Assembly: GCA_028716385.1 (NCBI GenBank)
Contig: JAQUPX010000001.1
Span: 282,775 to 346,774, forward strand
Reading direction: 5' to 3'
DNA from: a bacterium
GTDB lineage: Bacteria > Hydrothermota > UBA3073 > JACQXS01 > JAQTXJ01
DNA length: 64,000 nucleotides
The position numbers were made by a program, and so were the translations under genes. Positions 24,178-48,568 of the stretch are shown piece after piece; position 1 is the first letter of the stretch; every line of letters begins with the position of its first letter. The notes under the pieces are model-generated. The model saw only the letters and a list, made by a program, of their open reading frames with translations. It did no database searches and was not told the origin of the DNA.

Positions 24178-24224
24178 AGTTTTAACTAATTCCCCTCATC
24201 TCCCTATCCGCCTTATTCTTTTCT

Positions 24225-30824: not shown

Positions 30825-31119
30825 TATCCAATCGCGCATCTAGCGGGATTAGCCTAACTAAACGTGCTCTCCCATCTACCCTGTGTTTTGTTTTCAATCC
30901 TGTTCATCTGCGTCCAAATATTTTTTGTTTTTCCTTACTTAACTAACTATACTCACTTACCTAACTCAACTATTTTAGTATCACCATCTTCTTCGTCTCC
31001 TTAACATTCCCAGCCGTTACCCTCACAAAATATAGCAGACTCTTGCGTTCAACAAAGTGGAACGCTTAGAGGTCGCTATCCGGCTCTGCTACAACCTCTT
31101 TCTCTCTCGCATAGGCTTT

Positions 31120-31548: not shown

Positions 31549-31697
31549 ATCCCCCTCCTTTTTTACCCGGCTCAGCTACAAACTCTTGGATACAATCCTT
31601 AGAGTTTGTTGTCCAGCTCAGCTGTGGCCGTGGCTTTTTTTATTTTGCTTTCTGTTTTGTCATTGTCATCCCGCACTTGATGCGGGATCCATTGTTT

Positions 31698-33131
31698 TCA
31701 CTTTATTAGTACCATTTTCTTTGTCTCTTTAAAATTATTAGTTGTCACCCTCACAAAATATACCCCACTCTTTTTTATATTCGGCGTAAACACATAATCC
31801 CCTTTGCTTAATGCTCCATTGTAAATAACCTCTTTCGTTCTCCCGCACAAATCGTAAATTTTCAATTCCGCATTTATACTCTTTGGCACGCTCAAATAAA
31901 TCTTATCTTTTATTATTTCCATTTTTGATATTTGATTTTTGATTTTTGATTTCTCCTCTATCCCTACCTTAACATATTTTAATGCAAGCGAATAGTTCCA
32001 TCCTGCCGAAATTGCAGTAACGCCTGTCAGGAGGCTTGTCTGGACAGGCTGATTACGCTGGGTGCCGGTAGAATCTCCAAGCTGTCCATAACCGTTCTGC
32101 CCCCAAGCCCATACGGTACTGTCGGATTTTATTAATGCGAGTGAATGTTCCCCTCCTGCTGAGATTGCAACGGCATTGGTCAGATTAAGTGTCTGCAAGG
32201 GCACGGAATGAGGATTATAATCACTACTTCCGATACCAAGCTCCCCATAGCCGTTATATCCCCAAGCCCATACGGTTCCGTCAGGCTTTAATGCGAGTGA
32301 ATGCGCGCCCCCTGCTGAGATTGCAATAACACCGGTCAGGAGTTTTACCTTGACAGGCTGATTATTCTGGGTGGTGGTAGAATCTCCAAGCTGTCCGTAG
32401 TAGTTATATCCCCAAGCCCAGACTGTACTGTCAGACTTTAACGCAAGTGAATGGTGACCTCCCGCTGAAATTGCAACGACATTCGTCAAAAGATTTGTCT
32501 GGACAGGTACGAAATGAGTATTGTAATCGCTACTTCCGATACCAAGCTGTCCGGAGCCGTTATATCCCCATGCCCAGACGGTTCCGTCAGATTTTAACGC
32601 AAGTGAATGCGAACCTCCCGCAGAAATTGCAATAACATTCGTAAGAAGTTTTGTTTGCACAGGATAACGGCGATAGGCAGTAACAGTAGAATCTCCAAGC
32701 ACTCCGGAACCATTACTTCCCCAAGCCCAGACAATGCTGTCAGATTTTAAAGCAAGTGAATGCGAACCTCCCGCAGAAATTGCAACAACATTAGTCAAGA
32801 ACTTTGTCCGGACAGGATTATATCTATAATAAAAAGTAGTAGAATCTCCAAGCTGTCCGTAGGCATTATATCCCCACGCCCAGACAGTGCTGTCATAGTT
32901 TATGGCAAGCGAAAAGTCATATCCTCCTCCGCCTTTTCCTGCACAGATTGCAAGAACATTAGTCAAGATTTTTGTCCGGACGGGTTGATTCCGTTGCCAA
33001 GTATTAGTAGAATCTCCAAGCTGTCCCCAGTCATTACTTCCCCATGCCCATACATTTTCATCGGCTTTTGCGACACCTGCGCTTCCTGCTATCAACAGGC
33101 TTACGACCCACATAAAACTTTGTTTCTTCAT
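31698..33131 (-). CDS. RCC1-repeat propeller protein with T9SS C-terminal tail
   Basis: 477 aa; seven-plus repeats of VWAWGxNxYGQLGDST...GGxHSLALKSDxTV; C-terminal sorting tail. Confidence 0.7.
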   Translation of the reverse strand: MKKQSFMWVVSLLIAGSAGVAKADENVWAWGSNDWGQLGDSTNTWQRNQPVRTKILTNVLAICAGKGGGGYDFSLAINYDSTVWAWGYNAYGQLGDSTTFYYRYNPVRTKFLTNVVAISAGGSHSLALKSDSIVWAWGSNGSGVLGDSTVTAYRRYPVQTKLLTNVIAISAGGSHSLALKSDGTVWAWGYNGSGQLGIGSSDYNTHFVPVQTNLLTNVVAISAGGHHSLALKSDSTVWAWGYNYYGQLGDSTTTQNNQPVKVKLLTGVIAISAGGAHSLALKPDGTVWAWGYNGYGELGIGSSDYNPHSVPLQTLNLTNAVAISAGGEHSLALIKSDSTVWAWGQNGYGQLGDSTGTQRNQPVQTSLLTGVTAISAGWNYSLALKYVKVGIEEKSKIKNQISKMEIIKDKIYLSVPKSINAELKIYDLCGRTKEVIYNGALSKGDYVFTPNIKKSGVYFVRVTTNNFKETKKMVLIK

Positions 33132-33345
33132 CTTTCCCCCTTAGAAACTCTTATTTTTTTATGTTTAGAGTTTCTTATCAGTGTTTCTGCATTAGTTGGA
33201 CTTTCCCGCTCCGCCTGAGGCGGACGGATTAGACCAACTTATCAGTGTTCCTGGCTTTATCAAATTCCCGGCAAATCCGGGTTTTTTTTATTTTGCTTTC
33301 TGTTCTGTCATTGTCATCCCGCACTTGATGCGGGATCCATTGTTT

Positions 33346-34407
33346 TCATTTTATTAGTACCAGTTTCTTTGTCTCTTTAAAATTATTAGTTGTCACCCTC
33401 ACAAAATACACCCCATTCTTTTTCACATTCGGAGTAAACACATAATCCCCTTTGCTTAATGCGCCATTGTAAATAACCTCTTTCGTTCTCCCACACAAAT
33501 CGTAAATTTTCAATTCCGCATTTATACTTTTAGGCACATCCAAATAAATCTTATTTTTTCTTATCTGTAAATCCGCATTCCCCAATCCCTGCCTACCGGT
33601 CAGGCAGGCAAAATCCAAAATCGATGGGTCTTCTATCCCTGCACCGGCATCATAAACTGCTATTGTTGCCCTGCCGCTATCATCCCATGCTATTGCTTCG
33701 CTGGGCGACGAAGCGGAAATCTCTCCCCCGGCTCTAAAGTATACATTTGAAATACCTGAGAAAACGTAATGAGACGCAAGATTTGTGAAGTATAAATCAA
33801 GAGGATAGAGAGTGGAAAGCCCTACGTTCATATTAAATGCATTAGCCACGGGAGCTATGTTCTGATTAGGACAATATGCATTTTCAGACATTATTAAAAT
33901 TCCACCTGTTTTTAAGAGCCAGTTGAATGCATTTAAAGCGAAAGCTTTGTTATCTGCAGAATCAATATACTCACTGTCACAGAAATTACAGTCCCCGACT
34001 AACAATACGCGCCCGTTTTTTCTTTTAATATATTGAGCAAGAGAATCTACTTCAGAGGGTTGATAAAAACTATCCCAGGCACATGCGGAATTAATTACTA
34101 TAACATCGTAACCCGATAGATTCATAAAACCTATACCTGTGTCAACGACATCTATGCAATAATCATTAGAATCTAAAAGAGCAGTTAATCTGCTATACCC
34201 TCCGGAAGGAAGGTAGTAGTTACTGTATATTCCGTGCGTAGTATCCCACAGAACTGAGTATGTTGCCGTTTTCCCCTTTTTTTGTAATGATGGTTTTTGG
34301 GATTCATTCGTAGTATTAATTATTCTTCCTGTAGTAGCATCGTACTGAGCATAAGTCAGGTTACAAAATACAATTATTCCTGCAAAGACAAGCCGAATTT
34401 TTCTCAT
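33346..34407 (-). CDS. secreted hypothetical protein with T9SS C-terminal tail, duplicate A
   Basis: 353 aa; signal-like N-terminus; first ~270 codons about 98 percent identical at nucleotide level to 37724-38797. Confidence 0.55.
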   Translation of the reverse strand: MRKIRLVFAGIIVFCNLTYAQYDATTGRIINTTNESQKPSLQKKGKTATYSVLWDTTHGIYSNYYLPSGGYSRLTALLDSNDYCIDVVDTGIGFMNLSGYDVIVINSACAWDSFYQPSEVDSLAQYIKRKNGRVLLVGDCNFCDSEYIDSADNKAFALNAFNWLLKTGGILIMSENAYCPNQNIAPVANAFNMNVGLSTLYPLDLYFTNLASHYVFSGISNVYFRAGGEISASSPSEAIAWDDSGRATIAVYDAGAGIEDPSILDFACLTGRQGLGNADLQIRKNKIYLDVPKSINAELKIYDLCGRTKEVIYNGALSKGDYVFTPNVKKNGVYFVRVTTNNFKETKKLVLIK

Positions 34408-34414
34408 AACTTTA

Positions 34415-36040
34415 TTATCTCATTAGAATCAATTTCTTTGTTTCTCTGTAATTATCCGTTTTTAACTTCACAAAATAAATCCCTGTTTTTAGGTCTTTTG
34501 AGTTATTATCGGTACCATCCCAGGTGACAGTGGTCATTGGGGAATTAGGTAATTGAGTTATTGGGAAACTCTTTACTAATTTGCCGGCAATGTCGTAAAG
34601 TTTCAAGGAACAGTCCCGACTGTTCCCTACGGAGAAGGAAATGACTGTTGATTTTGAGAATGGATTTTTGTTTACCCTAAGCGTAGTCGAAGGGGGAGTG
34701 ATGTTTACTTTTTCCTGTATGCCCATTTTTTCGTTAGTTTTATAATGATACCCCATATCTACATATTTTTTATCAAAGACCGAGTCAGTTCTTGTTGTGT
34801 AAAGATGGAACCCCAAATCTTCTGCAAGCGTGTCTCCTGCCTCTACGCAAGGGCTTTCGACTGCTTGTCCTGCCGCTATCTGACTAAGGAAAAACGAATC
34901 TGCGCCCGATATTGCAAACATTGGGGGGCGGGAAATATTATAAAAACTATCACAAGGAATTCCGTTGCGATTTACACCCCAAGTCGTATCTCCGACTCCC
35001 GGACAAAAAACAAAATTTCCGGCCGAATTACCCCAAACGTTATTAAAAGCAATAAGAGAAGGAGTGATTTGACCACAATTATAACAATCTATCCCATATC
35101 CCGAACAACTAACAATAATATTATTAAGAATTACTGCGGGAGAAGGTGACTGACTGAGCCAGACCTGAGTAGGAGGAGCAGAACCGGAAGACCACGTCGT
35201 ATTATTTGAAATAGTATTATTTATAACGAAACTATTAGAGCGACATATATCAATTGCATAAGCGCGTTGAGATATGTTTCTACATATAAGATTGTTTTTT
35301 ATGGTATCAGACGAGGAGACACATCTTATTCCTCCGCCATCGAACCAAACTGAATTGTTTTTTATAATATTCCCAAATATTATAGAGCCTGTATTGGAGT
35401 CAAGATAAATGCCTCCGCCATATCCTCCTCCAATGGGTGTCACTGAGAAAAGCCCGCCATTTCCAACTATTTGATTATACATTATTTTAGCTCCATTAGA
35501 ATGACCACAATAAATAGCTGACCCTAAATGCCCTTTATTGCCTGATAAAACATTAAAGGTGATTTTAGTTGCCCCGCCCAAACAGCAAATTCCACCGCCG
35601 TTAGAGGAAATGGACCCATTTACAAAATTATTAAGTATCTTGTTATTGGTAATGGTAAGATAAGAATTATAACAATATATACCGCCTCCAACACTATCAG
35701 TAACATATCCCCATTGGATTGTAAAACCGGAAATTATTGTGTTGGAATCAAGAGTATTGCAGTTAAAAATCCTATTAGTACTATCCGCATCAACTATCGT
35801 AGAATCCGCACCTTTCTCGCTCATCAAAATTACCCCATTTTCCATATTTATCGGGAAAGTTTCTCCGGATGCCGTGTCGTAAATTCCCGGGGCTACGAGA
35901 ACAGTATCGCCATATTTAGCCGAATCTTCAACTGCATGTTTTATTGTTGAAATATATGATGGAACATACCATATTTTTGCCTGCAAAGAGTTAACCACAA
36001 ATAATAAGGTTGTAACAACAAAACAATTTACTCTTTTCAT
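34415..36040 (-). CDS. right-handed parallel beta-helix repeat protein with T9SS C-terminal tail
   Basis: 541 aa; repeated GGGIYxxNSxxTIxNNxIxNN units typical of pectate-lyase-fold repeats; C-terminal sorting tail. Confidence 0.65.
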   Translation of the reverse strand: MKRVNCFVVTTLLFVVNSLQAKIWYVPSYISTIKHAVEDSAKYGDTVLVAPGIYDTASGETFPINMENGVILMSEKGADSTIVDADSTNRIFNCNTLDSNTIISGFTIQWGYVTDSVGGGIYCYNSYLTITNNKILNNFVNGSISSNGGGICCLGGATKITFNVLSGNKGHLGSAIYCGHSNGAKIMYNQIVGNGGLFSVTPIGGGYGGGIYLDSNTGSIIFGNIIKNNSVWFDGGGIRCVSSSDTIKNNLICRNISQRAYAIDICRSNSFVINNTISNNTTWSSGSAPPTQVWLSQSPSPAVILNNIIVSCSGYGIDCYNCGQITPSLIAFNNVWGNSAGNFVFCPGVGDTTWGVNRNGIPCDSFYNISRPPMFAISGADSFFLSQIAAGQAVESPCVEAGDTLAEDLGFHLYTTRTDSVFDKKYVDMGYHYKTNEKMGIQEKVNITPPSTTLRVNKNPFSKSTVISFSVGNSRDCSLKLYDIAGKLVKSFPITQLPNSPMTTVTWDGTDNNSKDLKTGIYFVKLKTDNYRETKKLILMR

Positions 36041-36048
36041 TTTATTTC

Positions 36049-37638
36049 CTATTTCATTAAAATCAGTTTCTTCGTTTCTTTTATATTTCCTGCTGTTAGC
36101 CTCACAAAATACACTCCGCTCTTTTTTATGTTCGGCGTAAATGTATAATTGCCTTTGGTTAATGTACCTGAATAAACAGTGCTTTGAAGTCTACCACATA
36201 AATCGTAAATAGTTATTAGGGCATTAGGACAATAGTTATTAGGAACAGAAAGATAAATCTTTCCTTTTATAATTTTCAATTCCAAATTCCGAAATCCAAA
36301 ATCCAAATTCTTTTTATCCGCCTTCTCTTCAACTCCTATCTGTGTTCCATAATGGTATCCCAAATCAACCCATCCGGTATCAGGCTTTCCGTCAGTGGTA
36401 TTGCCACCCAGAAAGAGAAACTCATTATTAACAATATAATCCCCGCACCCTGAAACATTTTGCTGGTAATAATTTCCTAACGTCCCGCTCGTAAATCCCG
36501 GGTCAATGTTTATGTTATAAAAGCTATCGCAGGCATTTCCGTTCCTGTTAGTGCCCCAGGAGAAATTGCCAACTCCCTGCGGAGCATTATGAAAATTATC
36601 GGGATTATTGAGATAAAAACCGTTATATCCGATAAAAACTTTAGCCAGACTGTCGCAATATATTCCTCCTCCTGTTATTGCGCTGTCATAGGCAATTATG
36701 TTATTTTTTATAATTATAGAGTCCTGTCCCGAATCATTTCCCCAACAAAAAATACCGCCACCTCGTCCATCCCCATTATTAAACGGGTAATAATTATTAA
36801 CTATTGTATTGTTGATTATCTCTACCGGAGCAGAGCACTCAATTCCCATTCCAAAACCTTCTACATACCAGCCATTGCATGCATAATTGCTATCTATAAG
36901 ATTATTAAAAATAACGGCTTTTATGCAATTTACACACTCAATTCCGCCTCCATAAGGACTAGCTTCTATTGCATTATTTTTAGCTATAACATTATTCTTG
37001 ATAGTGATAATTGTAGCTTCTGCATATATTCCGCCCCCCCCGTATGCCTCATAGTATTTTGAGATATCCCCTTGAAGGTTATTTCCATCTTCTTTTACTA
37101 ACATACCGGCAGACTTTTTATTGTTTTTAAGATTGTCGGCCTCAGAGCTATTATACTTTATTATGTTATTCTCAATCAAAGCGGACCCTCCGTAAACAAA
37201 TATACCCCCACCCGCTGCAGGGAGATTATAAGCAGGATCTAACGTGTTATCCCGAATAATATTATTCCTTATAATTATATTTGAATTGTCGGAATATATT
37301 CCACCCCCATAAGAATGAAAACTACTGCCATCACTTATGGTAAAGCCATCAATTAGAACTGTATCGGTTAAACCAATGCATTTGATAACTGAGTACCCTC
37401 CGCTAATGATTGTGCTTTCCGGGCCTTCTTCGCTTTTGAGATGGATACCCCCCTTCATATTTATACTGTTTATACCGCCGGAGTAAGTCCCTTTTGAGAC
37501 AAGAACCACATCTCCCGACACGGCAGAATCAATTCCCGTTTGAATTGTAGAATAGTCAGCCGGGATACGAATTGTTTTTGCTTCAATATTACCCGTAATA
37601 AAGAATATCAAAGACACAAAAAATAAATATGTTCTCAT
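36049..37638 (-). CDS. right-handed parallel beta-helix repeat protein with T9SS C-terminal tail
   Basis: 529 aa; GGGIYSDNSNIIIRNNIIRDN and GGGIFCWGNDSGQDSIIIKNNII units; C-terminal sorting tail. Confidence 0.65.
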   Translation of the reverse strand: MRTYLFFVSLIFFITGNIEAKTIRIPADYSTIQTGIDSAVSGDVVLVSKGTYSGGINSINMKGGIHLKSEEGPESTIISGGYSVIKCIGLTDTVLIDGFTISDGSSFHSYGGGIYSDNSNIIIRNNIIRDNTLDPAYNLPAAGGGIFVYGGSALIENNIIKYNSSEADNLKNNKKSAGMLVKEDGNNLQGDISKYYEAYGGGGIYAEATIITIKNNVIAKNNAIEASPYGGGIECVNCIKAVIFNNLIDSNYACNGWYVEGFGMGIECSAPVEIINNTIVNNYYPFNNGDGRGGGIFCWGNDSGQDSIIIKNNIIAYDSAITGGGIYCDSLAKVFIGYNGFYLNNPDNFHNAPQGVGNFSWGTNRNGNACDSFYNINIDPGFTSGTLGNYYQQNVSGCGDYIVNNEFLFLGGNTTDGKPDTGWVDLGYHYGTQIGVEEKADKKNLDFGFRNLELKIIKGKIYLSVPNNYCPNALITIYDLCGRLQSTVYSGTLTKGNYTFTPNIKKSGVYFVRLTAGNIKETKKLILMK

Positions 37639-37723
37639 TTTTCCTCCCCTCCTCCGATATTTTTTCTGTTATTTGTTTTATTTGTCTTATTCGTCCTATA
37701 TGACTTATATGTCTTATCTTTTC

Positions 37724-38797
37724 CTATTTCATTAATATTAGTTTCTTTGTCTCTTTTATATTCCCCGCACTTACCCTCACAAAATACACCCCACTCTTTT
37801 TTATATTCGGAGTAAACACATAATCCCCTTTGCTTAATATGCCATTGTAAATAACCTCTTTCGTTCTCCCGCATAAGTCGTATATTTTCAATTCCGCATT
37901 TATACTCTTTGGCGCGCTCAAATAAATCTTATCTTTTAGCAATTGGAGCGAAGCGACATCCCGCCCTGGCGGGACCAAAATCGATGGGTCTTCTATACCT
38001 GCACCGGCATCATAAACTGCTATTGTTGCCCTGCCGCTATCATCCCATGCTATTGCTTCGCTGGGCGACGAAGCGGAAATCTCTCCCCCGGCTCTAAAGT
38101 ATACATTTGAAATACCTGAGAAAACGTAATGAGACGCAAGATTTGTGAAGTATAAATCAAGAGGATAGAGAGTGGAAAGCCCTACGTTCATATTAAATGC
38201 ATTAGCCACGGGAGCTATGTTCTGATTAGGACAATATGCATTTTCAGACATTATTAAAATTCCACCTGTTTTTAAGAGCCAGTTGAATGCATTTAAAGCG
38301 AAAGCTTTGTTATCTGCAGAATCAATATACTCACTGTCACAGAAATTACAGTCCCCGACTAACAATACGCGCCCGTTTTTTCTTTTAATATATTGAGCAA
38401 GAGAATCTACTTCAGAGGGTTGATAAAAACTATCCCAGGCACATGCTGAATTAATTACTATAACATCGTAACCCGATAGATTCATAAAACCTATACCTGT
38501 GTCAACGACATCTATGCAATAATCATTAGAATCTAAAAGAGCAGTTAATCTGCTATACCTTCCGGAAGGAAGGTAGTAGTTACTGTATATTCCGTGCGTA
38601 GTATCCCACAGAACTGAGTATGTTGCCGTTTTTTCTTTTTTTTGTAATGATAGTTTTTGGGGTTCATTCGTAGTGTTAATTATTCTTCCTGTTGTAACGT
38701 CATATTGAGCGTAAGCTATGTTAAAAAATACGATTATTCCTGCAAAGACAAGCCGAATTTTTCTTCTGCCTGAGGCGGATTTCGCTTTGCTCAACAT
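37724..38797 (-). CDS. secreted hypothetical protein with T9SS C-terminal tail, duplicate B
   Basis: 357 aa; see duplicate A; the linker before the tail differs (VPPGRDVASLQLL versus DFACLTGRQGLGNADLQI). Confidence 0.55.
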   Translation of the reverse strand: MLSKAKSASGRRKIRLVFAGIIVFFNIAYAQYDVTTGRIINTTNEPQKLSLQKKEKTATYSVLWDTTHGIYSNYYLPSGRYSRLTALLDSNDYCIDVVDTGIGFMNLSGYDVIVINSACAWDSFYQPSEVDSLAQYIKRKNGRVLLVGDCNFCDSEYIDSADNKAFALNAFNWLLKTGGILIMSENAYCPNQNIAPVANAFNMNVGLSTLYPLDLYFTNLASHYVFSGISNVYFRAGGEISASSPSEAIAWDDSGRATIAVYDAGAGIEDPSILVPPGRDVASLQLLKDKIYLSAPKSINAELKIYDLCGRTKEVIYNGILSKGDYVFTPNIKKSGVYFVRVSAGNIKETKKLILMK

Positions 38798-38804
38798 AAT
38801 TTTC

Positions 38805-40268
38805 CTATCTCATTAGAATCAATTTCTTTGTTTCTCTGTAATTATCCGTTTTTAACTTCACAAAATAAATCCCTGTTGTTAAACCTTTGGCGTCAAAATT
38901 AACACTATAACTTCCCGCTTGTTTTTCTTCATTGACAAGTGTTTTAACACAACTGCCCGTTATGTCATAAAGGGCTAACGAAACTTTACTTTTCCCATTG
39001 TTGAGCGAAGCGAAATCCGCCGTAGGCGCGAGTATTTGATATTTAATAATCCCTTTATTTACTATAGGATTTGGAAAACAATCGGTCAATCCATATGTTT
39101 TTGGAGTCCCGGTTTCTTCTTGAATGCTGCCAAAGCCAGGTCCTATCGCATAAAAAAGACTATCGCTTCCTTGTACATATATTGTTCCATCTGAACCTAT
39201 CGTAGGAGAAGAATATATTGGCGCTCCTGTTAAATAAGACCATTTAAGCGAACCATCAGAATTTATTGCGTAAAGGTTACTATCACTAGACCCAATATAT
39301 ATAGTTCCATTAAAATCTATTGCCGGAGAACTTCCTATTCTCTCACCTGTTAGAAAAGACCATTTAACCGAGCCATCAGGATTCATTGCATAAAGTTTCC
39401 TATCGTACGATCCAACATATATAGTCTCATCATAACCTATTGCAGGGCAAGAAGTAGTTATCATACCTCCTGTTTGATATGACCATTTTAGCGTCCCACT
39501 ATCAGGGTTTAAAGCATAAAGCTTGTGATTATATGCTCCTATATATACGGTTCTATCAGAACCTATCGCCGGTGCAGGATTGGGCTGACTTCCCGTTTGA
39601 TATGACCATTTTTCAACCCCGTCGTAATTTATCGCGTAAACCTTACCGGCATCACACCCCAAATATATAACCCCGTTAAGAGGGTCTATTGCCGGAGATG
39701 ACGCTATTCGGAAGTCTGTTTGATATGACCATTTAAGCGAACCATCAGGGTTTATCGCATAAAGTTTAAAATTAGATGACCCAAAATATATAATCCCGGC
39801 AGAATCTATTGCCGGGGAGCTGTTTTGATACCATCCGCTTCCTACTGTTACAAAAGACCATTTAAGCGAGCCGTCAGGATTTATTGCATAAAGTTTACTA
39901 TCCCAGGATAATACATATATAGTACTATCATAGCCTATTGCCGGCGAAGATATTACATAGTCCCCCGTTTTATATGACCATTTGATAGAGCCCATAGAAT
40001 CTATTGCATAAAGATTGCTATCGCTTGACCCGACATATAAAGTCCCATCAAAACCTATTGTTGGGGAAGAAAAACTCAAATAATTTCCTGTTACACAGCT
40101 CCATTTAAGTTGAGGGGTTGCAGGTCCGATATATGGGCTGCGTCCTGTATGTTGTAAATCATGGTGAAACATTGGCCAGGGAGTATTTGCTAACTGAGCA
40201 TCCAGGTTTCTAAACCCAATCAACCCAACAAATAAAATGAAAAAAACTTTTATACTTTTTATTGTCAT
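38805..40268 (-). CDS. PQQ-like beta-propeller repeat protein with T9SS C-terminal tail
   Basis: 487 aa; eight-plus repeats of YAINPDGSLKWSYxTGxxxxSSPAI; C-terminal sorting tail. Confidence 0.65.
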   Translation of the reverse strand: MTIKSIKVFFILFVGLIGFRNLDAQLANTPWPMFHHDLQHTGRSPYIGPATPQLKWSCVTGNYLSFSSPTIGFDGTLYVGSSDSNLYAIDSMGSIKWSYKTGDYVISSPAIGYDSTIYVLSWDSKLYAINPDGSLKWSFVTVGSGWYQNSSPAIDSAGIIYFGSSNFKLYAINPDGSLKWSYQTDFRIASSPAIDPLNGVIYLGCDAGKVYAINYDGVEKWSYQTGSQPNPAPAIGSDRTVYIGAYNHKLYALNPDSGTLKWSYQTGGMITTSCPAIGYDETIYVGSYDRKLYAMNPDGSVKWSFLTGERIGSSPAIDFNGTIYIGSSDSNLYAINSDGSLKWSYLTGAPIYSSPTIGSDGTIYVQGSDSLFYAIGPGFGSIQEETGTPKTYGLTDCFPNPIVNKGIIKYQILAPTADFASLNNGKSKVSLALYDITGSCVKTLVNEEKQAGSYSVNFDAKGLTTGIYFVKLKTDNYRETKKLILMR

Positions 40269-40275
40269 CTTTTCC

Positions 40276-41622
40276 TTATTTCATCACGATTAACTTTTTT
40301 GTTAGTTTGTAATTGTCTGCACTTAGTTTCACAAAATAAATTCCTGTTTTTAATTCTTTTGCATTTAGAGTAACACTATAACTTCCCGCTTCTTTTTCCC
40401 CGTCAGCTAATGTCTTAACACAACTTCCTGAAATGTCGTAGAGCCTTAATGAGATATTGCTTTTATCGGGTACGCAGTAACTAACAGTAGTTGATTTAAT
40501 AAACGGGTTTTTCAGTATTTCTAATTTTGCATTTCGGAATGTGAATTGCGGATTTTGGGATTCTTCCATCCCCATAGTTGTATAAACCCATTTTAAGTCT
40601 TTGTTTGTGAAATCATAATAAGCAACATCCATTGCGTACCCATCTTCACCACAACTCGTGTATCCTCCAACATCTCCAAAATCACACGCCCCTCCGCCCG
40701 ATGAAGTGTTTCCCCATTTAAGAACTCCGCCAGTTTTATCATAGTAAGTGATCATCCCATCGTTACAGCAAGCAAACATCCCTACATCTCCAACACTATC
40801 CAGAATAGAAGTTATCCAACTGCTCCCATTAAAAACAGCTTTTTTCAGGTCACCGTTTGTTACATCGTAATAAGCAATTACATAATTATTAGTTACTTTA
40901 CTGAGAGAACAGTACTGTCCTACATTTCCTGCTGTGTCCGCTTTTCCAATTATCCACTGGGTTCCGGTCCGGTATGCATATTTCAGGTCGCCGTTTGTTG
41001 CATCATAATAAGCTATTCCATATCTATCCTCTTTGTAGAGAGAACTGTATTGTCCAACGTCTCCCGCGGTATCCACTTTCTCAATTATCCATTGTGTTCC
41101 ATTCCAACTTGCATATTTTAAGTCGCCGTTTGTCGCATCATAATAGCTTATGTGTGGATAATTGAGAGTATCTAATTTCAACGAGGTGTATAATCCAACA
41201 TTTCCGGTAGTGTCCACTTTTTCAATATCCCATTGTGTCCCATTCCAATGGACATACTTTAAGTCTCCATTTGTAGAGTCATAATAACTTATGTGCGGAG
41301 AATACAGACTGTCTTTAATAACGGTTTGTATTCCAATAGAAGTCCACATTCCCACATCACCTATTGTATCTACATTTTGGATTGAAAACATTTCAAATCC
41401 TTCTGCACACTTTAGATTACCATTTGTAGCATCATAATAGGATATAAAAACAGGGAAAAGATCTGCTCTGGATATACTTTGAGGCGCTACCATTGAAATA
41501 TATTTTCCAACGTCCCCGGTTGTATCTACCCTGAAAATAGCTCCTCCTGTTGATTTTTCACTGAGAATTGCCAACATTACTACTGTCCAGAATATACTTA
41601 GCATAAATCTACTTCTTCTCAT
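40276..41622 (-). CDS. tandem ~45-aa repeat (ISYYDATNGDLKYA...) protein with T9SS C-terminal tail
   Basis: 448 aa; five-plus copies of DTxGDVGxYxSLxxxxxxxPHISYYDATNGDLKYAxWNGTQW; C-terminal sorting tail. Confidence 0.55.
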   Translation of the reverse strand: MRRSRFMLSIFWTVVMLAILSEKSTGGAIFRVDTTGDVGKYISMVAPQSISRADLFPVFISYYDATNGNLKCAEGFEMFSIQNVDTIGDVGMWTSIGIQTVIKDSLYSPHISYYDSTNGDLKYVHWNGTQWDIEKVDTTGNVGLYTSLKLDTLNYPHISYYDATNGDLKYASWNGTQWIIEKVDTAGDVGQYSSLYKEDRYGIAYYDATNGDLKYAYRTGTQWIIGKADTAGNVGQYCSLSKVTNNYVIAYYDVTNGDLKKAVFNGSSWITSILDSVGDVGMFACCNDGMITYYDKTGGVLKWGNTSSGGGACDFGDVGGYTSCGEDGYAMDVAYYDFTNKDLKWVYTTMGMEESQNPQFTFRNAKLEILKNPFIKSTTVSYCVPDKSNISLRLYDISGSCVKTLADGEKEAGSYSVTLNAKELKTGIYFVKLSADNYKLTKKLIVMK

Positions 41623-41871
41623 CTTTCCTCCTACTTTATTTCATCCTCAAGTATCTTTATACTTAATATTCTCAAAACCTTTCTTTGTCAATCTTAAATG
41701 TCAACTTTTTTAATTCCTTCGGTGAATCAAAGAATTCTGTGCCAACTTTGCGATAATCCATCAAACAGAGGAAAGAGAATTTTCCAATTTTTGTCTAAAT
41801 CTCGGGGCAAAAGTTAGGTCGTGTAAATTAGGAACCGCAGACATCCATACGATCATAAACTTAAAACATTC

Positions 41872-43299
41872 TTATTTTAACACTTTCCAATATCCGCCTT
41901 TATCCGGTCCAATTCGCTTGATAATTTTCTCTTTAACCAGTTTTCGTAATCGAGACTGTATTGTTTCTTCTGTCTCGTTCAGTTGTATAGATAATTCTTT
42001 CCTTGATAACTGCGGGTTTTCTTTTATCGTATTTATTATTATCCGGTATTTATCCGGTATTTTTCTGGGACTTTTCTGGGACTTTTCTGGGACTTTTGCA
42101 GTGATCTTTACAGTGCCTTTCCCGGCGTCCTTGTTATATAATTTTTCTGAAAACTTTTTTTTCGACTTATAAAAAATTACTACAAAACCTGTTTTTATAC
42201 ACTGAAACTCAACTTTTATTTTATATTTCTCGCATTCTTCGTAGATTCTTTTTAATCCGCTTCCCCATTTTTCAATGTCACTTGATTTATACAAAGTCTC
42301 CGCAATTAATGGATTCCTTAAGATAGAATGCTCTTTGCCCTTGATAAAGTCTTCAGGGGTTGCTTCTTCCGGGAACTGTCCGGGGTTATATATTTCTATC
42401 CTGTCCTTAAAAATAGCAATTTCATTGCCTTTAGGATTAGCATAATCCCTGTGACATAATGAATTGACAATAGCCTCTGTAATGGCTCTGACAGAGATTT
42501 CAGGGATTTCTTCTCTCCTGCTTCCTTCAAGATTAGCGCGCCAGTTCATATGCTCTTTTATGTAAGTTTCTGATTGTGCTTTCAAATTGAAAATATTTCC
42601 CTTAAATTTCTTGATATCAAGAAATGTGAGTTTATCCGTACCGGCAAATACAGCCGCCTGTACTTCCATTAAATTGTCATCACAAAATAAAACCTCTGCG
42701 GATTTGAGTAGTTTGTTTCCTTTGCTAAGATTTAATTTATGTAATACAGTTTTTATGTTTGAAAACTTGAAGTTAATTCTTTTAGCTTCGTTTGCCCTTG
42801 CTATATAATTTTTTACTGTATCTACATTTATATCTTTAAGAGATTTCTCTGATACTCCGTTTTCCCAAAAGATTTTGTTTTTCTTAAGTATTAAATTCTC
42901 CAATTCTCGAGCACTCAATTGCCTGTTTTCGTCGCCAACTCTCATATATGCTCTACCATAAGCAAAGTAAGGAATGTCCTGCCCGGAAAATTCAACCTCA
43001 ATATACATCTTTTTATTTGCCTTATTTGCAGAAACTTTAGGGAAAATTCTAGGCTCAATATGTTCTGAAATAGCTCTGGAAATTTCTCTTAAAGTATTTT
43101 TACCTATCGCCTGGCCTACAAAAGTGCTATCATCTTTTATGCCAAAATATATTTTACCTTTACTATGTTTATTAAGAATGGCAGATATAGAAATAATGGC
43201 TTCTTTTAATTCTGAAGTTGATGCCTTAAGCTCAACCTTTTCTGATTCTATATATTTCATTCTATTAGTACTACTATATAGTTTCTGTAATGTCGTCAA
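41872..43299 (-). CDS. putative DNA-binding regulator (AlbA_2/Schlafen-like domain + HATPase_c_4-like + C-terminal winged helix)
   Basis: 475 aa; N-terminal YIESEKVELKAS...GKIYFGIKDD block, central ITEAIVNSLCHRDYANPKGNEIAIFKDRIEIYNPG block, C-terminal IINTIKENPQLSRKELSIQLNETEETIQSRLRKLVKEKIIKRIG helix-turn-helix; contains an 11-nt x3 tandem repeat at 42061-42093. Confidence 0.65.
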   Translation of the reverse strand: MTTLQKLYSSTNRMKYIESEKVELKASTSELKEAIISISAILNKHSKGKIYFGIKDDSTFVGQAIGKNTLREISRAISEHIEPRIFPKVSANKANKKMYIEVEFSGQDIPYFAYGRAYMRVGDENRQLSARELENLILKKNKIFWENGVSEKSLKDINVDTVKNYIARANEAKRINFKFSNIKTVLHKLNLSKGNKLLKSAEVLFCDDNLMEVQAAVFAGTDKLTFLDIKKFKGNIFNLKAQSETYIKEHMNWRANLEGSRREEIPEISVRAITEAIVNSLCHRDYANPKGNEIAIFKDRIEIYNPGQFPEEATPEDFIKGKEHSILRNPLIAETLYKSSDIEKWGSGLKRIYEECEKYKIKVEFQCIKTGFVVIFYKSKKKFSEKLYNKDAGKGTVKITAKVPEKSQKSPRKIPDKYRIIINTIKENPQLSRKELSIQLNETEETIQSRLRKLVKEKIIKRIGPDKGGYWKVLK

Positions 43300-43369
43300 T
43301 AAAATTATTAAAGCGTATGATTAAAAGGGGGAAATCCAGTGCCAAATCTGTGCCCATCCGTGCTTTGTA

Positions 43370-44197
43370 TCATTTCATTAATATTAGTTTCTTTGTCTCT
43401 TTTATATTCCCCGCACTTAACTTCACAAAATATACCCCGCTCTTTTTTATGTTCGGCGTAAATGTATAATCCCCTTTACTTAATGTGCCACTGTAAATAA
43501 CCTCTTTCGTTCTCCCGCATAAATCGTAAATTTTCAATTCCGCATTTATACTCTTTGGCGCGCTCAAATAAATCTTTCCTTTTATAATTTTCAAGTCAAC
43601 AGCTTGAAGCGAGGGCTTCAAGCTACCCTGTTCTTCTATCCCTACGACAGGAGTGCCTGTTATGGAAACATCGTCAATCCAAAAAGCGACAGAGTCAGTA
43701 TAACTTGAAGTACCGGGAGATTGTATATCTGCTCCGAATATAATTCCGGTTATAGTATCCTTATCAGTATAAATTCCTTGCCATTGTGTCCATACCAAGT
43801 TTTCCCCCATACCATACAGATAATCCCCCCTAGTCCATACTGTATCATTCTTTTTATTTATAAGGAGAATGATAGATATTTTGTTAACAGACATCGCAGG
43901 CGCATCGCACGAATATTGATACTGAATTTTGCATGTGCAAGATATTACGGGTTTTATCGTTTGGGACATAGTTATGCTACTGAACTGGCATGAAGGTTTA
44001 TATCCATAAGCATATACCTCGCAACTTGCCGGAGAGGAGTAATATTTTGTATAGCAAGGAGTTGCCCTCCCGCCACCGTGTGCTATTGTGGGCGACCAGC
44101 TCGTTACTCCCGAATTAAATCCACCGTTAGTTATCATCTCACTCGCAAACATAGATAACGGCACAATTAACATCAAACCTATCAATACCTTTTTCAT
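43370..44197 (-). CDS. secreted hypothetical protein with T9SS C-terminal tail
   Basis: 275 aa; signal-like N-terminus; C-terminal sorting tail. Confidence 0.5.
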   Translation of the reverse strand: MKKVLIGLMLIVPLSMFASEMITNGGFNSGVTSWSPTIAHGGGRATPCYTKYYSSPASCEVYAYGYKPSCQFSSITMSQTIKPVISCTCKIQYQYSCDAPAMSVNKISIILLINKKNDTVWTRGDYLYGMGENLVWTQWQGIYTDKDTITGIIFGADIQSPGTSSYTDSVAFWIDDVSITGTPVVGIEEQGSLKPSLQAVDLKIIKGKIYLSAPKSINAELKIYDLCGRTKEVIYSGTLSKGDYTFTPNIKKSGVYFVKLSAGNIKETKKLILMK

Positions 44198-44208
44198 AGT
44201 TTTTTCTC

Positions 44209-45618
44209 CTACTTAATCAAGATTAATTTCTTTGTTTCTGTAAAATTATTAGTTTTTAATTGCACAAAATACACCCCATTCTTTTTTATCTTCGGCGTAA
44301 ACGTATAATCCCCTTTACTCAATATGCCATTATAGACAGTGCTTTGAAGTCTTCCACATAAATCATAAATCGTTATTAGTGTATTAGTATAATAGTTATT
44401 AGGAACAGAAAGACAAATCTTATCTTTTATAGTTTTTATATTTACTGACCACTCACCACTCACCACTGGCAACTGTTCTTCTTCTACGCCGACTTCTTTC
44501 CCCAATTTAATCAGATAGACTCCACAACCTGCCCCACTTCCTGCAATAATAAATCCGCTGTCAGAAGTTTGTTGAATTGATCTTCCCGCATCATAGCCGG
44601 TTCCGCCGATAGTTTTTGTCCAGAGAGTGTCGCCCGAACTATTTATCTTGATTAGATAGATATCTCCACCACCTGCCCCAAAAGAGGTTGTCATTCCTGA
44701 AATAATAAATCCGCTATCAGAAGTTTGTTGAAATGCCCAGCCCTCATCATACTCAGTTCCACCATAAGTTTTTGTCCAAATCGTATTACCTGAAGAATTT
44801 GTACGTATAAAATAAATATCTCCCTTACCTGCTCCTAAAAGTTCTGAATAACCTAAAACAATAAAGCCACCCATTCCGCCCGAAACTGATTGAACGGAAG
44901 TGCCGCCATCATATCCGCTTACACCGAAAGTTTTAGTCCAGATAACATCTCCCGAACTAGTTGTCCTTATTAGATAAACATCTCCCTCGCCCGGTCCATA
45001 ATATGCTTTTGTCATTCCTGAAATGATAAACCCTCCGTCTTGAGTCTGTTGAACGGAAAAACCTACATCATCGTAAATTCCGCCATAAGTTTTTGTCCAG
45101 AGAGTATTACCCGAAGAATCTGTCTTGATAAAATAAAAATTCTGATAATCCGGTGCGCCTGTCCCGAAAGAGTATGTCCCGCCTACGATAACAAATCCTC
45201 CGTCTTGAGTCTGTTGAACGCATTCTCCATAATCAGAGTCAGTCCCGCCGTAACTTCTTGACCATAAGGTATCCCCTAAAGAATCCGTTTTAATCAAACA
45301 AACATCTTTCCCGGAATACGTATTGCCTGCAATAATAAACCCGCAGTCAGAAGTCTGTTGGACCGAAAAGCCCCCATTGTTGCTAATTTTTCCGAAAGTT
45401 TTTGTCCACAGGGTATCCCCCGAAGAGTTTGTTCTGATGAGATAAATATTATTAGAATCTGTACGGCTTACAATAACAAATCCCCCGTCTTGAGTCTGTT
45501 TAACAAAATAGGCAGATGCACTTTTCCCGCCATAAGTCCTTGTCCATAAAGTATCCGGTGCAGATGCGAACAAGTTTGTTCCCGTTATGATAATTAATAT
45601 AATCAAATATCTTTTCAT
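44209..45618 (-). CDS. beta-propeller-type repeat (SBBP-like) protein with T9SS C-terminal tail
   Basis: 469 aa; eight repeats of GDTLWTKTYGGxxxDxGxSVQQTxDGGFIIxGxT...DxYLIKT; C-terminal sorting tail; same family as the fragment at 1-552. Confidence 0.6.
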   Translation of the reverse strand: MKRYLIILIIITGTNLFASAPDTLWTRTYGGKSASAYFVKQTQDGGFVIVSRTDSNNIYLIRTNSSGDTLWTKTFGKISNNGGFSVQQTSDCGFIIAGNTYSGKDVCLIKTDSLGDTLWSRSYGGTDSDYGECVQQTQDGGFVIVGGTYSFGTGAPDYQNFYFIKTDSSGNTLWTKTYGGIYDDVGFSVQQTQDGGFIISGMTKAYYGPGEGDVYLIRTTSSGDVIWTKTFGVSGYDGGTSVQSVSGGMGGFIVLGYSELLGAGKGDIYFIRTNSSGNTIWTKTYGGTEYDEGWAFQQTSDSGFIISGMTTSFGAGGGDIYLIKINSSGDTLWTKTIGGTGYDAGRSIQQTSDSGFIIAGSGAGCGVYLIKLGKEVGVEEEQLPVVSGEWSVNIKTIKDKICLSVPNNYYTNTLITIYDLCGRLQSTVYNGILSKGDYTFTPKIKKNGVYFVQLKTNNFTETKKLILIK

Positions 45619-45724
45619 ATTGCCCCCCTATTTCAGTGGGTAGTTGGGAGCACGTGCTCCCAACGCTACCCTGTGTTTTCATTCTGTCATTGTCATCCCG
45701 CACTTGATGCGGGATCCATTGTTT

Positions 45725-46900
45725 TCATTTTATTAGTACCATTTTCTTCGTTTCTTTAAAATTATTAGTTGTCAGCCTCACAAAATACACCCCGCTCTTT
45801 TTTATATTGGGCGTAAATGTATAATCCCCTTTGCTTAGTAGACCTTGATAAACAGTGCTTTGAAGTCTTCCACATAAATCATAAATTTTCAATTCCGTAT
45901 TTATACTCTTTGGCGCGCTCAAATAAATCTTGCCCTTTATTATCTGTAAATCCGCATTCCCCAATCCGAAATCCAAAATCAAAGGTTCTTCCACTCCCGA
46001 TTTTGAGTTAATGAATTTTAATATCCACTTTCCCGTAGTGTCGGGAACATTATATAAATATAACTCGGAAGAATCCGGTGTCAAACTTAGCCCTGACACA
46101 AACCCTATTCCACTAAATTCCGGCATCGCTTCAGGTGTAGAAAAAGTGTCTCCTATCGAACCTCTTTTTGCGTAGTAAATAATACCGGCTCTAAAATAAA
46201 TTTCCAGTTCATTATTTGTCAGGAAACAAGAAAAGTTATTAGTGCCGGGAAAATTAATTTTAAGGGACTCTTTAGCTCCGAATAAAGAATCTCTATTGCT
46301 TCTGGAAGCCATATATAAATAAACCCCCTGAGAATCCTCCTGCGCAAAATAAAGATGTAATCCGTTTGGTGAAATCCATGGGTAAGCGTCTGCCGTATCG
46401 GTAATATTTATCTCGCTTAGCGGGCGCAAACTATCAAAAGGGTCCGTTAAAGAATTCCTTACGGCAATCCATAAATCATTGTTGTCCCAGTTATTGTCCC
46501 AGCTTTTCGTAAATACCATTATTTTCCCGTCTTCCGTAATTGTGGGCTGGCTATTCGAGAAAGTATCCACATCATTAATATTCCCGGGCAATTTTGTCAG
46601 ACTTAATGAATCAAACTCTTCCTTAAGATTATTGCGGGACATAACATACAATCTATAGTTACCCGTGCTATCCGCAATGCTTGCATAATATTTCAGTCCG
46701 TCTTTTGAGAGCTGTCCCGGTCCGGGTATAAGATTCTGCGGAACTATAAGCGTATCCTTTAAAATAAAAGTTGTATCCGAGAAAAAAGCCGTTTTTGTAT
46801 TATTCTTTGTCTGGAGAATCCGCAGATTCCCGTCCTGTTTCCTTTCAACGTTTCCCTGCGTTAACGCAAGAACAAACCCCATCAAAATCGCATAAATCAT
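45725..46900 (-). CDS. secreted protein with T9SS C-terminal tail (start set at MIYAIL...)
   Basis: Track ORF reaches 46939, but ATG at 46900 has AAGGAGAG 5 nt upstream and begins a signal-like MIYAILMGFVLALTQG; C-terminal sorting tail. Confidence 0.55.
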   Translation of the reverse strand: MIYAILMGFVLALTQGNVERKQDGNLRILQTKNNTKTAFFSDTTFILKDTLIVPQNLIPGPGQLSKDGLKYYASIADSTGNYRLYVMSRNNLKEEFDSLSLTKLPGNINDVDTFSNSQPTITEDGKIMVFTKSWDNNWDNNDLWIAVRNSLTDPFDSLRPLSEINITDTADAYPWISPNGLHLYFAQEDSQGVYLYMASRSNRDSLFGAKESLKINFPGTNNFSCFLTNNELEIYFRAGIIYYAKRGSIGDTFSTPEAMPEFSGIGFVSGLSLTPDSSELYLYNVPDTTGKWILKFINSKSGVEEPLILDFGLGNADLQIIKGKIYLSAPKSINTELKIYDLCGRLQSTVYQGLLSKGDYTFTPNIKKSGVYFVRLTTNNFKETKKMVLIK

Positions 46901-46984
46901 ATTCTCTCCTTTATTAACCGGTATGTCGGTTAATAACACCCATCAACAACAAAAGTCAAACATTTTAATTTGTACGATGCAAGC

Positions 46985-48568
46985 TTATTTCAATACTATA
47001 AATCTTTTATTTATGCAGTGGCCGTTGGATTCCAACCTGACAAAATATATCCCGCCGGATAACCCTTTTGTATCTATACTAACCGTATGTTCGCCTGCGC
47101 ACTGCTCTCCGCTGAAAATAGTCCTGACCGCTCTCCCGCTGACATTATAAACTTTCAACGAAAAACTACTTTTAACGGGGAGTTCGTAACTTATATTCGC
47201 AAACTTTGAAACGAGATTCGGATTTACCTTTAATTCCCCAATCCGAAATCCAAAATCCGAATTCGACGATTCTTCTACCGCATTTAACGAAACTTTCGAG
47301 TAATAAACATCGGGATTCTCCATAGAAATCGACAAAGCGCTCCATACTATGTGGAGATATCCCGAGCCGTCAATTGCTGCCGAAGGATACATAGAAGCAA
47401 AACCTCCCGTGCTGATAATATTAGAGCTCCACGATAGTCCGCTGTTCTTGGAATACTTTACCCCGATTTTCGGATAAGGTTCCCCCATTAAACTATCGTA
47501 TTGATAAACACCATAAACAACTGCAACAAAATTATCCCGGACATTAATTTGAGGTATCCCCATCCCGTATCCCCCCACAGCCAAAGTCTCTACTGCCGGA
47601 ATCAGACAAACAGGAGTTCCCCAACTTGCTCCTCCATTGGAGGAATATCTTATGTAATACGAAAAAACGGAATCTTGTTTCTCGCACTGTAACCACCCTA
47701 TATAAACCGAATTTCCGCTTGACGCAACCGACGGCAAAATAGAAATATCCGTATCCGTCGTAAGCCTGACATCGGACGCCCAGACTTTTCCGCTGTCCGT
47801 TGAGCGTTTATAATATATCTCTCCGAGCGAATCGTTTTTTGAATCCTGCCATACCAGATGCACAAGATTACCGGAAGCTGATATTACCGGGAAAGGCTCA
47901 CATAAAAGACCCATTTGAGGAGGCGTATGTGTTACACCGGCAGTTGTCAACTTTTCAACGGGATTTGACCACCCGGAACCGCTGTTGAAAGAATGAGTAT
48001 AAACAAAATCATAAGTGCTGTCGGTTTCTAGTTTCGTCCAGATTGAATGAACGGTATTATTCCCGGACGTCGCCATAGATACGAGTCCCAGCCCTTGAAT
48101 CGAGTCCGATTTGTACAACACGGTATCTTTCCATATACTTCCGCCATCTACGGAACGAGTATAATAAATACAATAATTATCGCCGACATTTTCGTATTTG
48201 GAATAAAATATATGAACGGCATCGAGATTGTTAGTTGCTATCGTAGGCCAAAACCCAAGGGAGTCGGCAAGCCTTACGGTATCGCCGAACGTTGTTCCTC
48301 CATCGGTAGAGCGTTTATAATAAAGATGTGTTGCCGAACTTTTAGCCTTGTTTTTTGAGAATAATTCTATTGATTTGTAGCCTGTAGTGTCTACGTCATC
48401 TATCCACACGATATGAACACGGTTTCGCGAATCCAAAGCAACGGAATGCTGGGAAAAAAGAGAACTCGCCGAACATCCCGGGGTGTTGCTTATATTCGTT
48501 GCGCTCTTATACGAAACAGTCAATCCACCCAAAAGGATGCTTACTAAAAAATATTTAATGTATACCAT
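46985..48568 (-). CDS. BNR/Asp-box repeat (sialidase-fold) protein with T9SS C-terminal tail
   Basis: 527 aa; Asp-box motifs STDGGTTF, SVDGGSIW, STDSGKVW, SSNGGASW, SKNSGLSW; C-terminal sorting tail. Confidence 0.65.
   Translation of the reverse strand: MVYIKYFLVSILLGGLTVSYKSATNISNTPGCSASSLFSQHSVALDSRNRVHIVWIDDVDTTGYKSIELFSKNKAKSSATHLYYKRSTDGGTTFGDTVRLADSLGFWPTIATNNLDAVHIFYSKYENVGDNYCIYYTRSVDGGSIWKDTVLYKSDSIQGLGLVSMATSGNNTVHSIWTKLETDSTYDFVYTHSFNSGSGWSNPVEKLTTAGVTHTPPQMGLLCEPFPVISASGNLVHLVWQDSKNDSLGEIYYKRSTDSGKVWASDVRLTTDTDISILPSVASSGNSVYIGWLQCEKQDSVFSYYIRYSSNGGASWGTPVCLIPAVETLAVGGYGMGIPQINVRDNFVAVVYGVYQYDSLMGEPYPKIGVKYSKNSGLSWSSNIISTGGFASMYPSAAIDGSGYLHIVWSALSISMENPDVYYSKVSLNAVEESSNSDFGFRIGELKVNPNLVSKFANISYELPVKSSFSLKVYNVSGRAVRTIFSGEQCAGEHTVSIDTKGLSGGIYFVRLESNGHCINKRFIVLK

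Follow-up and report, generated by a model that had tools for sequence, protein, structure and literature searches.

Virtually identical C-terminal domains (CTDs) on otherwise unlike cargo proteins of the type IX secretion system (T9SS) have been described for the KLIKK proteases of Tannerella forsythia, six clustered enzymes of different catalytic classes (karilysin, mirolysin, forsilysin, mirolase, miropsin-1 and miropsin-2) for which the arrangement was called unusual and its origin left open by the authors (Ksiazek et al., 2015, PMC4404884). In Porphyromonas gingivalis the genes rgpA, kgp and hagA have undergone domain rearrangements, and gene conversion has been discussed for their adhesin domains, not for the CTD (PMC5266723). 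The CTDs of Porphyromonas and Tannerella have been shown not to replace one another (PMC11285876), so that a tail copied from the same genome would be a safe replacement. Here we describe a 64,000-nucleotide (nt) stretch of bacterial DNA (the window, whose positions serve as coordinates throughout) in which a minus-strand array of secreted-protein genes at 31.1-48.6 kb carries T9SS tails that have been exchanged piecemeal at the DNA level. Literature searches on T9SS CTD gene conversion, concerted evolution and domain shuffling yielded no description of mosaic or converted CTDs.

The KLIKK proteases are the closest precedent for the window array, which is a better resolved case of the same kind of phenomenon, with a well-known mechanism. 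In both, T9SS cargo genes are clustered, their domains are unrelated, and a near-identical CTD ends in a basic/hydrophobic motif; the mirolase CTD is also among the structural matches of a modelled window tail. The window cargos are not proteases (they are RCC1, beta-helix-like, SBBP-like or of unknown kind), and their terminus is K-[LM]-[VI]-L-[IM]-K (KKMVLIK, KKLVLIK, KKLILMK, KKLILIK) rather than KLIKK; for these reasons the array is regarded as an analogue and not as a member of that group. The window tails are mosaic, with at least two alternative versions per block, whereas the KLIKK domain is one uniform copy; exchange in the window is documented at the nucleotide level, with breakpoints and a comparison of orthologues; and none of the potempin-like inhibitor genes that precede KLIKK genes was noticed here. 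The likeness to rgpA, kgp and hagA lies in recombination between repeated coding segments of one genome, which gives rise to mosaic surface or secreted T9SS cargos, but in P. gingivalis it is adhesin domains and alleles that move between strains, while in the window the module is the secretion signal itself, on unrelated passengers. Polymorphic toxin loci (Rhs and contact-dependent inhibition, CDI) likewise have a conserved segment that serves as a recombination handle, and orphan fragments nearby, but their polarity is reversed: in the window the C-terminus is conserved and the N-terminus variable, and the array holds no toxin/immunity pairs. Nothing suggests that the orphan tail fragment at 30970-31044 acts as a donor.

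The proteins of the array have a common layout, with a signal-peptide-like N-terminus, a passenger domain and a CTD of about 70-85 amino acids that ends at the stop codon of its gene and so forms the extreme C-terminus. The N-termini resemble signal peptides on reading (for example MKKQSFMWVVSLLIAGSAGVAKA), a putative assignment judged from the letters. An earlier note on this DNA, made from its letters, had proposed that near-identical, mosaic T9SS tails sit on unrelated cargo genes, and its count of 18 tails across the whole window is borne out. The seven 3' ends that it listed belong to one CTD sub-family of eight, here called family A, with seven members on the minus strand at 31.7-46.9 kb (ending at 31698, 33346, 36049, 37724, 43370, 44209 and 45725, the positions by which the genes are named below) and an eighth at 334-552 on the plus strand. 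The window genome has at least three more family-A tails, in proteins P0015, P0034 and P0040. All eight score 38.8-43.7 bits against TIGR04183, above the NCBIfam cut-off of 23, and the proteins bear the NCBI name 'T9SS type A sorting domain-containing protein'. In a scan with the Pfam model PF18962, which covered the seven minus-strand members, these reach 21.2-26.2 bits, under the gathering score of 27, because the N-terminal 'NPF' segment of canonical tails is missing from family A; other window tails pass at 33.8-46.6 bits. The AlphaFold2 (AF2) model of the 31698 tail is a seven-strand immunoglobulin-like beta sandwich (predicted local distance difference test, pLDDT, 88.7), matched in Foldseek, among others, by the CTDs of T9SS translocon substrates (8gl8_D, 8glk_D, 8gl6_D) and of mirolase (8qb1), with E-values of 3e-3 to 2e-2 that are weak, as expected of a small and generic fold. 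Family-A proteins are therefore predicted to be secreted by a T9SS, and family A is a divergent, small, lineage-restricted CTD sub-family, known from three metagenome-assembled genomes (MAGs).

Ahead of the tails the passengers are of many kinds, with RCC1 repeats in 31698-33131 and a beta-helix in 34415-36040, a PQQ/BamB-like propeller in 38805-40268, an SBBP-like repeat protein in 44209-45618 and BNR repeats in 46985-48568. In several others Pfam matches the tail alone, one of them being 36049-37638, called beta-helix-like for the 33% identity of its cargo to the Beta_helix protein 34415; three cargos among the seven named tail genes are of unknown kind. The claim that the upstream domains are unrelated thus holds for most of these genes, but not for 33346 and 37724, which encode near-identical duplicates (97% amino-acid identity), nor for 44209, whose cargo is paralogous to that of the 334-552 gene. 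Whole-gene duplication was rejected as a general source of the common tails, the cargos being unrelated save in these two pairs.

Pairwise identities were taken over the 213-nt core of the seven named tails, and of the 21 pairs five reach the 85-95% that the earlier note had given for them, at 85-93% (31698/33346 92.9%, 37724/43370 92.4%, 31698/37724 88.1%, 33346/37724 85.7%, 31698/43370 85.2%); the remaining pairs lie at 68-83%, the 45725 tail matching the others at 75-83% and the 36049 and 44209 tails at 68-79%. The longest exact run shared between tails is 47 nt. Each tail splits into four blocks, most with two alternative versions, and the alternatives differ by 40-50%. Block 1 is of type a (KSINAELKIY) in 31698, 33346, 45725, 37724 and 43370 and of type b (NNYxxNxLITIY, with two extra codons) in 36049, 44209 and 334-552; block 2 reads TKEVIY in four tails and LQSTVY in 45725, 36049, 44209 and 334-552; and the last block reads TTNNFKETKK[ML]VLIK in 31698, 33346 and 45725 and [ST]AGNIKETKKLILMK in 37724, 43370 and 36049. 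The last block of 37724 is 96% identical to that of 43370, yet only 69-73% to those of 31698 and 33346. The 45725 tail is 94% identical to 43370 in block 1 and 85 and 82% identical to 36049 and 44209 in block 2, and its last block is 92% identical to 31698 and 33346 but only 63-65% to 37724 and 43370. The mosaic proposed for this tail stands in its type-a start and in its middle, while its end, once assigned to the 37724/43370 kind, is of the 31698/33346 kind. It is clear from the block identities, from a triplet test and from segmentation that the mosaic of sub-blocks among the tails is real.

When codons were drawn at random from window codon usage for the observed amino-acid sequences, the expected nucleotide identity of core pairs among five genes was 67-76%, against 77-93% observed (z = 4.6-8.5, and 5.6-8.5 for the pairs among 31698, 33346, 37724 and 43370), and the closest pairs have 7 synonymous differences where about 36 are expected. 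Tail identity is therefore well above the level accounted for by amino-acid conservation (z up to 8.5), as the proposal of exchange had implied. A test of the pairwise homoplasy index (PHI) type on the seven tails gave p<=2e-4, and the signal persisted at third codon positions (1e-4), with each codon limited to a single site (2e-4) and at purely synonymous variation, which leaves 15 informative sites in codons for invariant amino acids (0.02), so that neither convergent selection on the protein nor linkage within codons can explain it. In a 3SEQ-like test 18 of 97 triplets stood at p 0.0002, the lowest value possible with 5,000 permutations, and their parental patterns were visibly blocky. A GARD-like segmentation (exhaustive parsimony over all 945 topologies, 200 permutations) shortened the trees by 13 steps with one breakpoint, 19 with two and 24 with three, where the permutation maxima were 8, 12 and 13. 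The three breakpoints so supported, at alignment columns 82/83, 130/132 and 195/197 (45887, 45838-45840 and 45773-45775 in 45725), sit in the most conserved stretches of the tail (IYDLCGR, GVYFV), as expected for homologous recombination.

Scans of genome and metagenome collections found family A in two other organisms only, the MAG STC_131 (GCA_028688815.1) and a MAG in the JGI metagenome Ga0265297, both of which have a dozen or more family-A tails that combine these alternative blocks in further ways. Four window tails (31698, 33346, 37724 and 43370) group in a clade found in this genome alone, 85-93% identical within it, with the nearest outside tail at 78-80%. The 43370 cargo is 48.5% identical in amino acids to its orthologue in the Ga0265297 MAG (mL021_+3371), which has a type-b tail whose blocks are 51-75% identical in nucleotides, while the blocks of the 43370 tail are 86-96% identical to those of the co-resident 37724. 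The 45725 cargo is 71% identical in amino acids to its STC_131 orthologue (sL018_+81), which lies among the same kinds of cargo genes and again has a type-b tail, with blocks at 46-81%. Blocks of 43370 and 45725 thus reach 94-96% identity to co-resident, non-orthologous tails versus 46-82% to the tails of their orthologues, a mark of concerted evolution. For 46985 the cargo is 56% identical in amino acids to mL019_+1_1335 and sL006 up to the AVEE junction, beyond which the tails cannot be aligned; the orthologues in both relatives carry family-A tails and the window gene a canonical one, so that the whole tail type was replaced at that junction. As a control, 62038 and its orthologue (63% amino-acid identity) retain the same tail type. 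Between STC_131 and the Ga0265297 MAG, which are close relatives, the exchange can be observed directly: orthologous cargos and their tails are identical at 97.8/80.4%, 91.6/70.5%, 90.2/67.2% and 99.6/96.2%, a turnover of tail relative to cargo that is about ten-fold in the least affected pair (3.8% vs 0.4% divergence) and more in the others. In one such pair a clean tract of about 65 nt in the tail of one orthologue agrees with another gene of its own genome, and the other orthologue keeps the version also present in a neighbouring paralogue. In STC_131, L011 545-2698 and L012 1594-3183 combine a canonical start ('NPFSKSTVISYSVP') and a canonical middle ('GRCVKTL') with a family-A type-b block ('NNEYTNTLLTIYDL'), and these hybrid-looking tails suggest that exchange also takes place between tail sub-families.

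The duplicates 33346 and 37724 permit cargo and tail to be compared within the window, and the two prove to have had different histories. Their bodies show 2 differences in 621 nt (33640-34260, 99.7% identical), and identity collapses at 33614, ahead of the family-A tail, with the linker unalignable beyond; the tail cores are 85-95% identical, with the last 60 nt at about 70%. The match of 33638-34487 to 37998-38877 comprises identical runs of 72, 31, 72, 112 and 449 nt, and the near-identical segment reaches upstream over an 8-nt spacer into the last 72 nt of the family-B tails of the preceding genes, whose own cargos are unrelated (the beta-helix of 34415-36040 and the PQQ propeller of 38805-40268). 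Since identity spans the end of the upstream family-B tail to the cargo/linker junction, the copy begins inside one tail and stops before the next.

Identity also continues past the stop codons. The hairpin that the earlier note had seen behind three genes is present there in exact copies 3' of 31698, 33346 and 45725 (30 nt, GTCATCCCGCACTTGATGCGGGATCCATTG, at 31665, 33313 and 45692; none expected by chance), within non-coding homology that extends for 66 nt in 31698 and 33346 and for 43 nt in 45725, and a blastn alignment of 31632-31916 with 33280-33564 is 93.7% identical over 285 nt. The hairpin (folding energy -15 kcal/mol, z -4.2) has no U-tract on the gene strand; it occurs at three of the eight family-A tails, only with a type-a last block, and each of the three genes closes an operon-like unit. 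Most simply it is a passenger linked to the type-a last block. It was not accepted as a canonical intrinsic terminator of the tail genes, there being no U-tract on their strand and a terminator scan flagging the opposite strand only, nor as a CRISPR-like or attC-like element, since the copies are single, without an array or an integrase. A different 3' flank, of about 20-25 nt, is common to 43370 and 55289, whose tails are of different sub-families (43351-43369 TACAAAGCACGGATGG, 55270-55288 TACAAAACACAGATGG).

Recurrent homologous gene conversion among the tail-coding 3' ends is the best explanation of this array, and one that we regard as very probably correct. Exchange took place at the DNA level, has breakpoints within the tails and recurs in three genomes; RecA-type homologous recombination would be its mechanism, and exchanged tails would be tolerated because selection favours a fit to the T9SS of the host itself. 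The product of each tandem cargo gene would begin with a signal peptide, followed by a passenger unrelated to the others, a linker G-[IV]-E-E and a CTD of about 70 amino acids, which would serve as a type A sorting signal recognised by the T9SS and, in the species studied, then cleaved off. With tail segments of about 210 bp that are homologous and close together, general homologous recombination would copy tracts from one tail to another, tracts of about 50-100 nt, at times longer, with variable endpoints, and now and then larger segments with ends inside tails. The outcome would be the near-identical tails that 31698, 33346, 37724 and 43370 have behind unrelated cargos, mosaic tails of which 45725 is one, and a 3' stem-loop carried along with one last-block type. 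The case for gene conversion is clear but not surprising. Several points weigh against it. Non-reciprocal, RecA-dependent transfer is a presumption, parsimony with only two outgroup genomes underlies the assignment of donor and recipient to each tract, and all three genomes are metagenome assemblies. Other strains, and not paralogues on the same chromosome, could have been the partners in recombination for some of the similarity. Of the T9SS machinery, no SprA, PorV, PorU or GldKLMN was found in the scanned open reading frames (ORFs) of the window. The tails of 36049, 44209 and 334-552 are no closer to window tails than to those of the relatives (44209 is 77-78% identical to relatives' tails and 79% to window tails), and these three therefore point to common ancestry with mixing of blocks, not to recent homogenisation.

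The earlier note had offered gene conversion or cassette exchange, and it is the former that fits better. A mobile 3' cassette of tail and stem-loop, captured by illegitimate or site-specific recombination with the help, for example, of small palindromic elements, would account for the exact hairpin that moves with one last-block type in three genes, for the in-frame palindromic element that many tails of the relatives have in common on unrelated cargos, for the orphan tail fragment that adjoins a dispersed repeat, and for the tail type of 46985, wholly unlike that of its orthologues and swapped at the conserved G/A-V-E-E junction. The marks of a site-specific cassette, namely fixed boundaries, recombination sites such as att and a nearby recombinase, are nonetheless missing: tract endpoints differ from pair to pair in blastn and fall in the most conserved stretches, and the scanned window ORFs, which comprise nearly all those of at least 150 amino acids, yielded no domain of an integrase, a transposase or another recombinase. 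The hairpin accompanies only one last-block type and is missing from all 30 loci fetched from the relatives, and the orthologues of the affected genes already have homologous tails, which were thus overwritten and not acquired. Gene conversion is favoured on these grounds (variable endpoints, no recombinase, a hairpin with a single last-block type), and the cassette is improbable.

A false mosaic, created when paralogous repeats were joined or cross-corrected during metagenome assembly or polishing, has to be considered where every genome is a MAG and the window holds a 449-nt exact repeat, the more so as the T. forsythia KLIKK loci were at first mis-assembled owing to their shared motifs (PMC4404884). 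The exact runs between tails, at most 47 nt, are nevertheless short for de Bruijn mis-joins at usual final k-mer sizes, the 45725 tail needs at least two switches within 210 nt, and alternative blocks that differ by 40-50% are too unlike for mis-polishing; reading frames are all intact, and the same pattern appears in three independently assembled genomes, so that an artefact is very unlikely. Least credible of all is a reading without any exchange of DNA, in which the secretion signal, or an RNA element inside it, is simply under strong purifying selection. It could draw on the 32 of 70 residues that are invariant across the eight family-A tails, and on a lineage-specific constraint of the kind implied by CTDs that are not interchangeable between species (PMC11285876), but synonymous sites and non-coding flanks are common to the tails as well, the recombination signal holds at synonymous sites, and orthologues carry different tails. 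An RNA element in the tails was rejected, since the RNAalifold consensus reaches only -3.8 kcal/mol and lacks compensatory pairs, and Rfam matches nothing in the window.

Table 1. Positions of family-A tails, shared flanks and related segments in the window
Feature	Position	Strand	Remarks
Family-A tail core (K-x-K-I-Y to stop), RCC1 gene 31698-33131	31698..31910	-	blocks a-a-a; TIGR04183 42.1 bits
Shared non-coding 3' flank, hairpin 31665-31694	31632..31697	-	matches 33280-33345
Family-A tail, gene 33346-34407 (unknown-function cargo, duplicate of 37724)	33346..33558	-	blocks a-a-a
Shared non-coding 3' flank, hairpin 33313-33342	33280..33345	-	
Family-A tail, gene 36049-37638	36049..36267	-	blocks 1 and 2 type b, marked by two extra codons, NNYCPN...LITIY and LQSTVY; last block 80-82% to 37724/43370
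Family-A tail, gene 37724-38797	37724..37936	-	blocks 1-3 type a; last block type b (SAGNIKETKKLILMK)
Family-A tail, gene 43370-44197	43370..43582	-	Ga0265297 MAG orthologue has type-b tail
Family-A tail, SBBP-like gene 44209-45618	44209..44427	-	blocks 1 and 2 type b; own last-block variant
Mosaic family-A tail, gene 45725-46939	45725..45937	-	blocks a, b, a
Non-coding 3' flank common with 31698 and 33346; hairpin 45692-45721	45682..45724	-	
Eighth family-A tail, SBBP-like gene cut by window start	334..552	+	31 kb away from the others
Recently copied segment	33638..34487	-	match 37998-38877
Last 72 nt of family-B tail, beta-helix gene 34415-36040	34415..34487	-	identical to 38806-38877
Canonical (non-family-A) type A tail, BNR-repeat gene 46985-48568	46985..47242	-	
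Orphan 3' tail fragment (...LLYFVRVTAGNVKETKKMVILK*), no intact gene ahead	30970..31044	-	

In this locus the T9SS sorting signal acts as an exchangeable module within a genome, seen at nucleotide resolution, and conversion of this kind could explain in a simple way how the KLIKK proteases of Tannerella came by their 'virtually identical' CTDs. CTD sequences are on this evidence poor phylogenetic markers for their cargo genes, and arrays of such tail-sharing genes are prone to mis-assembly. The natural chimeras map those segments of the domain that tolerate a swap, with the reading frame and, presumably, function preserved. A further thought, speculative and with a small chance of being right, is that the block versions are functionally distinct secretion signals (in routing, in anchoring versus release, or in efficiency), so that recombination re-routes cargos and selection keeps the tails matched to the T9SS of the lineage. 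If true, it would explain why tails turn over far faster than cargo and would give a general origin for shared CTDs of the KLIKK type.

The linker between cargo and tail, G[IV]EE...NA[DE]LKIIK, is kept at the protein level in all three genomes and therefore belongs to the module; a derivation of the cargo-tail linkers from intergenic repeats was dropped on the same ground. The intergenic region 24180-24660 is rich in GATTTTGGATTTTGGATTGG-type repeats and holds a 51-nt direct repeat (24237-24287 and 24584-24634, 94%), and intergenic 24527-24590 is 89% identical to the in-frame linker of 33346 (33564-33625, 'DFACLTGRQGLGN'), including the palindrome CCTGCC...GGCAGG. In tails of the relatives (L005, L007, L018, L022, L026, L027) and in one of the window genome (P0040), a small palindromic element is inserted in frame between the penultimate and the final strand of the domain. 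Its layout is TGTCATTCTGA-[variable hairpin core]-GAAGAATCTAAT, it reads CHSDTERSEGEESN, CHSESAAGGEESN or CHSERSEESN, and three variants of the core occupy the same position on unrelated cargos. A palindromic insertion common to tails of unrelated cargos is a rare marker of DNA-level copying. The 3' hairpin of the window has a similar layout of GTCAT plus hairpin, on the opposite strand.

The orphan tail fragment lies beside the ORF 31120-31548, with stop codons upstream in its translation, and matches the 31698 and 37724 tail ends at 77-80% identity. Ahead of it stands the repeat GAGCCGGATAGCGACCTCTAAGCGTTCCACTTTGTTGAACGC, found also 3' of a tail gene of STC_131 (L005, just after 3219), and the fragment may be what is left of a decayed tail that a dispersed element has broken up.

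Other genes of the window lie within or around the array. A gene with Schlafen AlbA_2, HATPase_c_4 and winged-helix domains (41872-43299, minus strand), without a secretion tail, breaks the run of cargo genes between 43370 and 40276, and an ATP-binding cassette (ABC) exporter (48771-50516) lies within the array. It is the second of its kind, the other (24652-26370) belonging to what is likely a cluster for ribosomally synthesised and post-translationally modified peptides (RiPP type) beside the array, together with a YcaO cyclodehydratase (22315-24177) and a radical SAM/SPASM enzyme (26367-27731). The genes 17109-18596 (minus strand) and 29316-30824 (plus strand) are inverted paralogues, 76% identical in nucleotides over the whole gene, that encode FG-GAP/PQQ propellers with internal repeats; they have a tail type of their own (CLRIYNTAGELVKTLL...SKIVVVK), and a homologue with the same tail is present in the Ga0265297 MAG (L021 6076-7575). 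A second array of paralogues, six tandem ORFs of 204-314 amino acids with no Pfam match at 3812-8081 on the plus strand, shows patchy mutual nucleotide similarity of mosaic appearance, as in 4467-4603 and 5095-5231 (88%) or 4420-4453 and 5818-5851 (100%).

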